A DNA stretch of 64,000 nucleotides from Spirulina sp. (GTDB lineage: Bacteria; Cyanobacteriota; Cyanobacteriia; Phormidesmidales; Phormidesmidaceae). Location of the stretch: contig JBIPSI010000012.1 in NCBI GenBank assembly GCA_044070495.1, forward strand, positions 32,001-96,000, read 5' to 3'. The translations under genes were made by a program, and so were the position numbers. This document shows positions 25,119 through 25,274 of this stretch, piece after piece (the first letter of the stretch is position 1; the number at the start of each line of letters is the position of its first letter). The notes under the pieces were generated by a model. That model was not told the DNA's origin and did not search any database. It saw nothing but the letters and a program-made list of their open reading frames with translations.

Positions 25119-25274
25119 TTACTCATACCCACCAACGTTTATATGGGGTTTGGTTGTTTCCCATCTAGTCTTTCCTCCAGCCGAAATAGTCTGTGACTGA
25201 TCTGTGTTTAGAGGTTGCCACAGTTGATCGTTTTGAAGTTGTAGCTTAGCTGATTTCGGTGAATGATGTTTCAT
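25119..25274 (-). CDS. Leader peptide P2, 51 aa, absent from the ORF track (core resembles the EF-Tu N-terminus)
   Basis: Manual translation: MKHHSPKSAKLQLQNDQLWQPLNTDQSQTISAG | GKTRWETTKPHINVGGYE*; leader clearly paralogous to P1 and P3. Confidence 0.8.
   Translation of the reverse strand: MKHHSPKSAKLQLQNDQLWQPLNTDQSQTISAGGKTRWETTKPHINVGGYE

Follow-up and report, generated by a model that had tools for sequence, protein, structure and literature searches.

Why does a small cyanobacterial gene encode a peptide that, once freed of its leader, would begin like EF-Tu? This question is raised by p25119, an open reading frame (ORF) for a peptide of 51 amino acids (aa) in a 64,000-nucleotide (nt) stretch of a Spirulina sp. 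genome (G000), which as a whole is referred to here as the window. The ORF is one of nine tandem minus-strand genes for peptides with double-glycine leaders, which extend from position 26147 down to 23408. An initial annotation had treated the peptide as a single curiosity and had connected it with the plant receptor EFR. As far as sequence comparison can tell, p25119 is instead one member of a family-wide pattern in a rare and horizontally scattered family of arrays, whose putative cores copy the N-termini of EF-Tu, the phycocyanin beta subunit, and ribosomal protein S10, the presumed FX loops of PsaA and PsaB, a porin coiled coil, and an HExxH helix.

The ORF reads exactly as the initial annotation had it, with a leader that ends in ...QSQTISAG, and its complete product is MKHHSPKSAKLQLQNDQLWQPLNTDQSQTISAGGKTRWETTKPHINVGGYE. 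The leader comprises 33 residues and the predicted mature core comprises 18 aa (GKTRWETTKPHINVGGYE). Because the three closest leaders also have 33 residues each and can be aligned with it without gaps, a cut after Ala-Gly falls at the position equivalent to that of the paralogues. Leaders end in GG in eight of the nine array members, and p25119 carries Ala-Gly at the aligned position with a GG located one residue further on. According to excerpts of PMC6363468, leaders usually end in Gly-Gly, Gly-Ala, or Gly-Ser, and conserved hydrophobic residues lie at positions -4, -7, and -12 upstream of the cut. Ala-Gly at -2/-1 departs from the endings given in this part of the source, and therefore a cut one residue later, after GG, is possible. 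The p25119 leader retains Ile at -4, Leu at -12, and Trp at -15, and has Ser at -7. Its start context, AAAACCATGAAA, is common to p25119, its paralogues, and a counterpart in a second genome (G086) described below. The core was also considered as a diverged form of the LLFANPFA core found elsewhere in the array. A DNA alignment with the two closest paralogues revealed only a CCAA-CCC patch beyond the leader, which is too little for this proposal to be accepted.

The EF-Tu protein of the same genome (G000 C10:34903-36132; Pfam GTP_EFTU) starts with MAREKFERTKPHVNIG. When its Met is removed, it aligns ungapped and in register with the core GKTRWETTKPHINVG, and seven of the 15 positions are identical (E, T, K, P, H, N, and G). 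The alignment from the paralogue-equivalent cut that the initial annotation had described is thus borne out against the genome's own EF-Tu. In ordinary searches, EF-Tu is the best non-self match yet reaches only 24.3 bits, which is not significant (E 0.65 for tblastn of the 51-aa peptide against the genome, and E 0.46 for blastp of the core against all six-frame ORFs). Since the actual claim concerned register, we used a register test, wherein the first 15 core residues were compared without gaps to 100,202 candidate N-termini from the genome, with Met either kept or removed. This set is over-inclusive in that it admits any start codon leaving at least 100 codons. The best score, 51, falls on EF-Tu, and shuffled cores scored 30.2±3.2 with a maximum of 43, none of the 300 reaching 51. 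Among PDB sequences, the core has 26 matches at E<=10 (best E 0.051), every one of them an EF-Tu N-terminus, and phmmer aligns core residues 2-15 with EF-Tu N-termini. Five sister cores compared with the PDB as controls gave 0, 0, 0, 1, and 1 weak unrelated matches. Judged by these comparisons, the EF-Tu likeness of the core is not an accident.

Is this likeness preserved in relatives? No relative of the 51-aa peptide was found among 5.8 billion protein clusters, where near lengths were searched, and 40 related genomes (24 of the same genus) gave only spurious antisense-frame matches at E>0.04 and no p25119 orthologue. A profile made from the nine leaders recovers exactly the same nine from the six-frame translation of the 5.3-Mb genome, all else being noise. 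Against 1.84 billion representatives, this profile yielded ten proteins at E<=0.001, none of them EF-Tu-like: two belong to the window itself, four are sister-peptide orthologues, one is a distant protein, and the remaining three, which are repeat proteins, were considered spurious. There was no protein-database relative of p23646 besides itself. For the PsaB-like peptide, three full-length relatives were found (P0004, P0012, and P0013), all of which retain a 12-residue core that occurs in four organisms, and two of which have the complete ...GRGGTC. When P0012 was searched against 401 genomes of the class, full-length matches were present in G000 and G086 only.

G086, a cyanobacterium from another family, carries a syntenic cluster with an exporter, an AraC-family gene, eight peptides, a protease, and an HlyD protein. 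Between its PsaA-like and CpcB-like peptide genes lies a 71-aa EF-Tu-like precursor (L028:10848-11060), which reads ...LWQPLSLEQSQSLSGG and then GKERFARSKPHTNIGSFTYPP..., so that the core directly after GG is GKERFARSKPHTNIG. The EF-Tu of G086 itself opens with MARAKFERNKPHVNIG. In the register test this core scores 56 on EF-Tu and is thus closer to it than the p25119 core (shuffles 28.8±2.8, with none of 150 reaching 56), and 27 of its 31 PDB matches are EF-Tu. The PsaB-like core of G086 shares 19 of 21 residues with PsaB (E 1.9e-9). The two EF-Tu-like peptides have 14 of 33 leader residues and eight of 17 core residues in common, with a proportion of synonymous differences (pS) of about 0.7 that is near saturation, and their genes occupy different places in the two arrays. 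Both retain the pattern G-K-x-R-[WF]-x-x-[TS]-K-P-H-x-N-[VI]-G. The initial annotation had proposed beforehand that TKPHxNxG should be conserved among relatives. This expectation held because the very diverged G086 counterpart, the only one found, preserves the motif as [ST]KPHxNxG, with KPHxNxG directly after GG. The orthologue search that it had suggested thus returned this distant counterpart and no close orthologue. The two peptides appear to be old relatives that may have shared descent or may have acquired the core twice; with either origin, the EF-Tu-like residues are maintained in both.

Sister peptides in the array also resemble proteins of their own genome. A scan with NCBIfam models matched two of them to PsaA (model positions 563-587) and PsaB (547-565). 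Against the genome's own proteins, p24021 matches PsaA over 24 residues (E 3.9e-6) and p25367 matches PsaB over 18 residues (E 7.7e-5), and we take the copied segment to be the FX loop. Both FX Cys positions are replaced in all four versions of the PsaA-like copy, and the PsaB-like copies keep the first Cys. The genome itself has two psaA-psaB pairs, on contigs C22 (about 20053-24700) and C30, whose PsaA-like ORFs (779 and 790 codons) and PsaB-like ORFs (734 and 743 codons) have identical FX-loop segments. The core of p23646 opens directly after GG with MFDAFTKVVTQVDSGREY, and the genome's own phycocyanin-type beta subunit (Pfam Phycobilisome), presumably CpcB, opens with MFDAYTKVVSQADARGDF. 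The register score of p23646 on this subunit is 53, a value reached by none of 300 shuffles (28.8±3.2), and nine of its ten PDB matches are phycocyanin beta N-termini. The same core continues with RLREEFQAELSPLR, which is like the part of a porin that separates its SLH domain from its OprB domain, and the C-terminal end of p24021, GRNLLAHELTHLIQ, is like the HExxH stretch of several genome proteins with the eCIS core domain (PF13699).

Four other candidate pairings were not accepted. The p25968 core as a copy of GlyQ has a PDB E value of only 1.7 and no match in its own genome. The p24340 core is weakly like an internal segment of an ORF that we presume to be DnaK, and five of 300 shuffles reach its score. 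The peptide stretch LLFANPFAR as a copy of an internal segment in an unidentified 287-aa ORF (1 of 300 shuffles), and the p24862 C-terminus as a copy of the C-terminus of a 523-aa ORF (E 1.1), were likewise weak.

A further array is found in G194, a genome of the same family as G000 from another genus, and the sole other match among 173 genomes of the order. This array is split across two contig ends, and its cores are short with one module each (Table 1). Modules that are fused in the G000 cores are separate peptides in G194, and the 18-residue p25119 core fits this single-module type. The small ORF of G194 that contains LILVKGALDAR lies beside the exporter and has a leader with the ending GSG in place of GG. 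The S10-like core of G194 has no match at E<5 among the six-frame ORFs of G000, and hence may be closer to S10 from other bacteria than to cyanobacterial S10.

Reduced arrays without an EF-Tu-like member occur in metagenome loci L014 (with L015 and L017) and L016. In L014, the PatA/PatG-type protease is reduced to a 73-codon N-terminal remnant (10876-11097), and the array consists of four members only, followed by an unrelated 435-codon gene. The L016 contig (1520 bases) carries two tandem p24576-like copies and, in addition, a GG peptide whose 51-residue core is unrelated. In L013 (2164-2271), a contig of a Chloroflexota metagenome-assembled genome, a stretch distantly matches p24576 over residues 18-53 (39% identity, E 1e-5 within candidates).

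Table 1. Peptide genes and associated genes of the window, and cores of the related G194 array. Positions are those of the window unless a locus is named; core assignments are putative.
Feature	Position	Strand	Description
p25968, array member 1	25968..26147	-	59 aa; core without convincing donor; 25/27 identity to G086 counterpart core
p25367, array member 2	25367..25564	-	65 aa; core has LLFANPFA module, then PsaB FX-loop copy (18 residues)
p25119, array member 3	25119..25274	-	51 aa, ATG start; leader 25176-25274, core 25122-25175, stop codon 25119-25121
p24862, array member 4	24862..25047	-	61 aa; LLFANPFA module in core; leader nearest to p25119 leader
p24576, array member 5	24576..24854	-	92 aa; core donor not found; 85%-identity orthologues in metagenome loci
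p24340, array member 6	24340..24540	-	66 aa; sole likeness weak, to internal DnaK segment (5/300 shuffles reach score)
p24021, array member 7	24021..24284	-	87 aa; PsaA FX-loop copy with Cys replaced (16 residues), then eCIS-core-like (PF13699) HExxH
p23646, array member 8	23646..23924	-	92 aa from ATG at 23924; phycocyanin-beta N-terminus copy MFDAFTKVVTQVDSGREY, then segment like SLH-OprB porin coiled coil
p23408, array member 9	23408..23614	-	68 aa; core donor not found
PatA/PatG-family subtilisin-like protease (S8 + PatG_D + PatG_C)	21432..23363	-	TIGR03895 736.4 bits (cut-off 421.05) and Pfam; directly downstream of array
HlyD-family membrane-fusion protein	19168..20535	-	Pfam HlyD_3, E 1.9e-17; downstream side of array
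AraC-family regulator	26472..27371	+	Upstream of array, divergent
Peptidase-C39 ABC exporter (PCAT type: C39 + ABC membrane + ATPase)	27368..29515	+	Pfam Peptidase_C39, E 3.9e-36, residues 4-136; upstream of array, divergent
G194 core MFDAFTKVVVQADARGEF, then stop			CpcB, 15/18, E 9.8e-5
G194 core ...QRLQEEFSAELATLRGRVDA			Porin, 18/20, E 8.9e-6
G194 17-residue core			PsaB, 15/17, E 1.5e-6
G194 core ...LILVKGALDAR	L046 about 10130-10331	-	PsaB, 11/11, just upstream of FX loop; E 0.66 alone
G194 core SSLLAHELTHVAQQSGI			eCIS-core HExxH, 11/14, E 0.02
G194 core NNERIRVKLKSYDHLTWAMSLMF	L047 11644-11712		Ribosomal protein S10 N-termini make up 18/18 PDB matches, best E 0.044

How the cores came to resemble their donors can be addressed by comparing DNA with protein. 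Nucleotide identity between core and donor gene is 24/45 for tuf, 34/51 for psaB, and 46-49/72 for psaA in G000, and 33/51 in G086. This sharing is no greater than the amino acids force, and synonymous sites differ. For six orthologous pairs of cores from G000 and G086, the ratio of nonsynonymous to synonymous substitution rates (dN/dS) is 0.11-0.33, compared with 0.22-0.75 for the leaders, the cores often being lower. From these values, it is the protein, and not the DNA, that is under selection. Furthermore, the N-terminal copies begin both at the leader cut and at the mature first residue of the donor: Met is kept in the CpcB copies, where the next residue is Phe, and is absent in the EF-Tu copies, where the next residue is Ala. 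Methionine aminopeptidase has this known specificity, leaving Met before Phe and removing it before Ala. We regard it as very probable that the likeness of the cores to their donors is real and selected.

What, then, are these peptides for? The array has the standard anatomy of leader-cleaved exported peptides, from which we infer export. The C39 domain of the exporter would cut the leader during export, the exporter and the HlyD protein would release the core outside the cell, and further trimming of some cores may fall to the PatA-like protease. In the mechanism that we prefer, the peptides would act outside the producer as competitive mimics in neighboring cells, where they would occupy whatever binds the native segment, be it an assembly partner, a receptor, or a sensor, and would thereby interfere or misinform. 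Taken as a whole, the reading that these are exported mimics of conserved segments of abundant or essential proteins, kept by selection, seems to us the probable one, held with moderate confidence. That mimicry itself is the mode of action is put forward more tentatively and falls somewhat short of an even chance. It is possible, though rather doubtful, that the array amounts to a secreted panel of exact-register linear copies acting on neighbors, either as dominant-negative blockers of the assembly of complexes unable to diverge from the copied stretch or as counterfeit 'lysed-kin' signals.

Several observations weigh against this interpretation. No RNA run that covers the locus (23400-26200) was found. 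Most of the donor segments are cytoplasmic or lie on the cytoplasmic side, so that an exported peptide would have to be taken up before it could encounter the partners of these segments. For five of the nine cores of G000, the own-genome, register, and PDB comparisons gave no convincing donor. Purifying selection shows that the cores matter, and not that likeness to the donors is what matters. The clusters are also rare, being found in two of the 401 genomes sampled in the class, two of the 173 in the order, and one of the 57 in the family of G086. As for p25119 itself, neither the protein-cluster search nor the 40 related genomes provided a close orthologue, and by leader similarity it and the G086 peptide are not nearest relatives, so that there is no clean orthologous pair. 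Its Shine-Dalgarno-like stretch is weaker than those of the paralogues (AGAGC versus GGAGG or TGAGG). Together with Ala at -2 and the missing close orthologue, this weaker stretch indicates that the p25119 copy could be decaying.

The alternative that survives best is that fragments of genes or of abundant mRNAs were captured behind an existing leader and re-used as bacteriocins with some other function (membrane damage, for instance), the likeness being a historical trace that persists only because the new function is selected. The cores are indeed modular and mosaic, p23646 combining CpcB with porin and p24021 combining PsaA with HExxH, whereas the modules are separate in G194. The donors are, without exception, highly expressed or multi-copy genes. 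The G+C content is 0.43-0.47 in the peptide array and 0.43-0.48 when the AraC gene is included, compared with 0.55-0.62 for the flanking genes (window 23600-27200). This low value and the presence of the array in only two of the 401 class genomes suggest horizontal transfer, as do its scattered lineages and a similarity between the G000 and G086 clusters that exceeds the similarity of CpcB (73%). However, random capture would not be expected to produce N-terminal copies (EF-Tu twice, CpcB three times, and S10 once) that start exactly at the cut and at the mature residue, nor to replace the FX-loop Cys consistently in all PsaA-like copies and keep it in the PsaB-like ones. No DNA-level trace of a donor is left, and a Pfam scan of the large ORFs in the window revealed no reverse transcriptase, recombinase, or mobile-element gene. 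On sequence grounds, the exact N-terminal register and the absent DNA trace argue against capture, which we consider unlikely without dismissing it.

Less probable still is the possibility that p25119 resembles EF-Tu by chance, or is a dying paralogue whose product has ceased to be made, which would be compatible with a functional family. The BLAST E values of 0.46-0.65, the Ala-Gly ending, and the weaker ribosome-binding stretch are what such a copy might display, and the gene has no match in the 5.8 billion protein clusters or the 40 related genomes and is absent from the L014 and L016 arrays. Set against this are an intact frame with its ATG and the family start context, the retained leader hydrophobics at -4, -12, and -15, a register score reached by none of the 300 shuffles, and the preservation of the same EF-Tu-like residues in the G086 peptide.

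The first 18 residues of EF-Tu constitute the elf18 epitope that is perceived by the plant receptor EFR. The initial annotation proposed an exported analogue or antagonist of a universal bacterial signature, and that part of its proposal is upheld by the leader anatomy, the C39-ABC exporter, the HlyD protein, and the non-accidental EF-Tu likeness; the link to EFR is not. A secreted elf18-like agonist or antagonist of EFR would be consistent with an 18-residue core in EF-Tu register that has K2, a basic residue at 4, an aromatic residue at 5, and KPHxNxG, and excerpts of PMC11161748 describe non-immunogenic cold-shock-protein epitope variants that block perception and name elf12 as a weak antagonist; yet in the same excerpts two natural non-immunogenic elf18 variants did not antagonize, N-acetylation of an exported, protease-released N-terminus would not be expected, nothing ties these organisms to plants, and the sister peptides copy phycocyanin beta, PsaA/PsaB, porin, and S10, none of which is sensed by EFR. 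With no support for a plant connection, and with sister cores that are no ligands of EFR, we rate this explanation lowest, as highly improbable.

The array mostly has the defining features of double-glycine bacteriocins or microcins with ABC (ATP-binding cassette) transporters that contain a peptidase (PCATs). Like other C39-exported double-glycine peptides, such as class II bacteriocins and microcins (PMC3140520), it combines GG leaders, tandem precursors, and one leader type with diverse cores, adjoined by a C39-ABC exporter and an HlyD protein. In cyanobacteria, excerpts of Wang et al. 2011 report 145 such clusters with 290 precursors and little core conservation (PMC3140520). The present array differs in that its cores are recognizable housekeeping copies; the main text of PMC3140520 contains no photosystem, phycocyanin, or elongation factor. 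In our literature search, which covered main texts outside the subscription journals, no account emerged of cores copying housekeeping proteins, and the pattern appears to be undescribed. With the CTB family bacteriocin model (NF038167, cut-off 32 bits), p25119 gave no match and the best sister, p24576, scored 13.9 bits.

In the NHLP and Nif11 families, as Haft et al. reportedly noted in 2010, it is the leader that resembles a housekeeping protein, whereas in this array it is the exported core. These families are otherwise similar, according to excerpts of PMC6363468, in being C39-exporter peptides wherein part of the precursor comes from a housekeeping protein family. The cluster is reminiscent of cyanobactin pathways in its PatA/PatG-family protease (736.4 bits; PatG_D and PatG_C). 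However, its precursors carry GG leaders for a C39 exporter, the Pfam scan revealed no YcaO-type heterocyclase or second PatG-type protease among the window's large ORFs, and the protease is absent between the array and HlyD in G194 and truncated in L014.

Ribosomal peptides that occupy the site of a native partner are not without precedent. Darobactin imitates a beta-strand signal. Excerpts of PMC8183687 describe darobactin on BamA and processed microcin C, an analogue of aspartyl-adenylate, as peptides that imitate a native ligand. Both are heavily modified and imitate one ligand each, whereas the array peptides are apparently unmodified and linear and copy many proteins. A second parallel is the intrabacterial antagonism of immune epitopes, wherein an encoded variant competes with the immunogenic form (excerpts of Stevens et al. 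2024, PMC11161748). In that case, plant-associated bacteria encode the variant as a full-length paralogous protein, as opposed to a dedicated exported peptide in cyanobacteria without a known host.

The surroundings of the array add several observations. The C39 domain of the exporter has one Cys inside an EEDCG stretch, which we take to be the catalytic motif. No immunity gene is evident in the cluster, and promoter and terminator scans of the locus gave results at chance level. Between p25367 and p25119, a hairpin with a perfect 8-bp stem (GAAGCCAA...TTGGCTTC) is located at 25326-25349 and is listed as terminator-like on the plus strand only, opposite to the direction of the array. Contigs from four DNA runs all leave 24998-25373 uncovered, and one contig of DNA run X4 spans 23673-24507 with <90% likeness to the window. 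A large surrounding region (30144-54768 and 11946-18957) carries glycosyltransferase, polysaccharide-export (Wzz, Poly_export, and ABC-2), sulfotransferase, and exosortase genes. Farther away, at 58549-60864, the ORF list places a NACHT-domain STAND NTPase ORF whose span overlaps with the 5' end of a hybrid histidine kinase ORF of 1090 codons (55593-58865).

Cyanobacteria commonly encode double-glycine peptides with C39 exporters, and a function is known for almost none of these peptides. If the likeness described here is functional, each peptide names its presumed partner system, whether translation, photosystem I assembly, phycobilisome assembly, or outer-membrane anchoring, and unmodified fragments would serve as competitive decoys against targets that are unable to evolve away. 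Comparing PCAT-associated small ORFs with the proteome would then be a search rule for genome mining. Should the peptides truly form a secreted panel of this kind, they would represent a type of microbial weapon or signal that has not been described before. If the likeness is only historical, the arrays would show that bacteriocin cores can be born from fragments of other genes.

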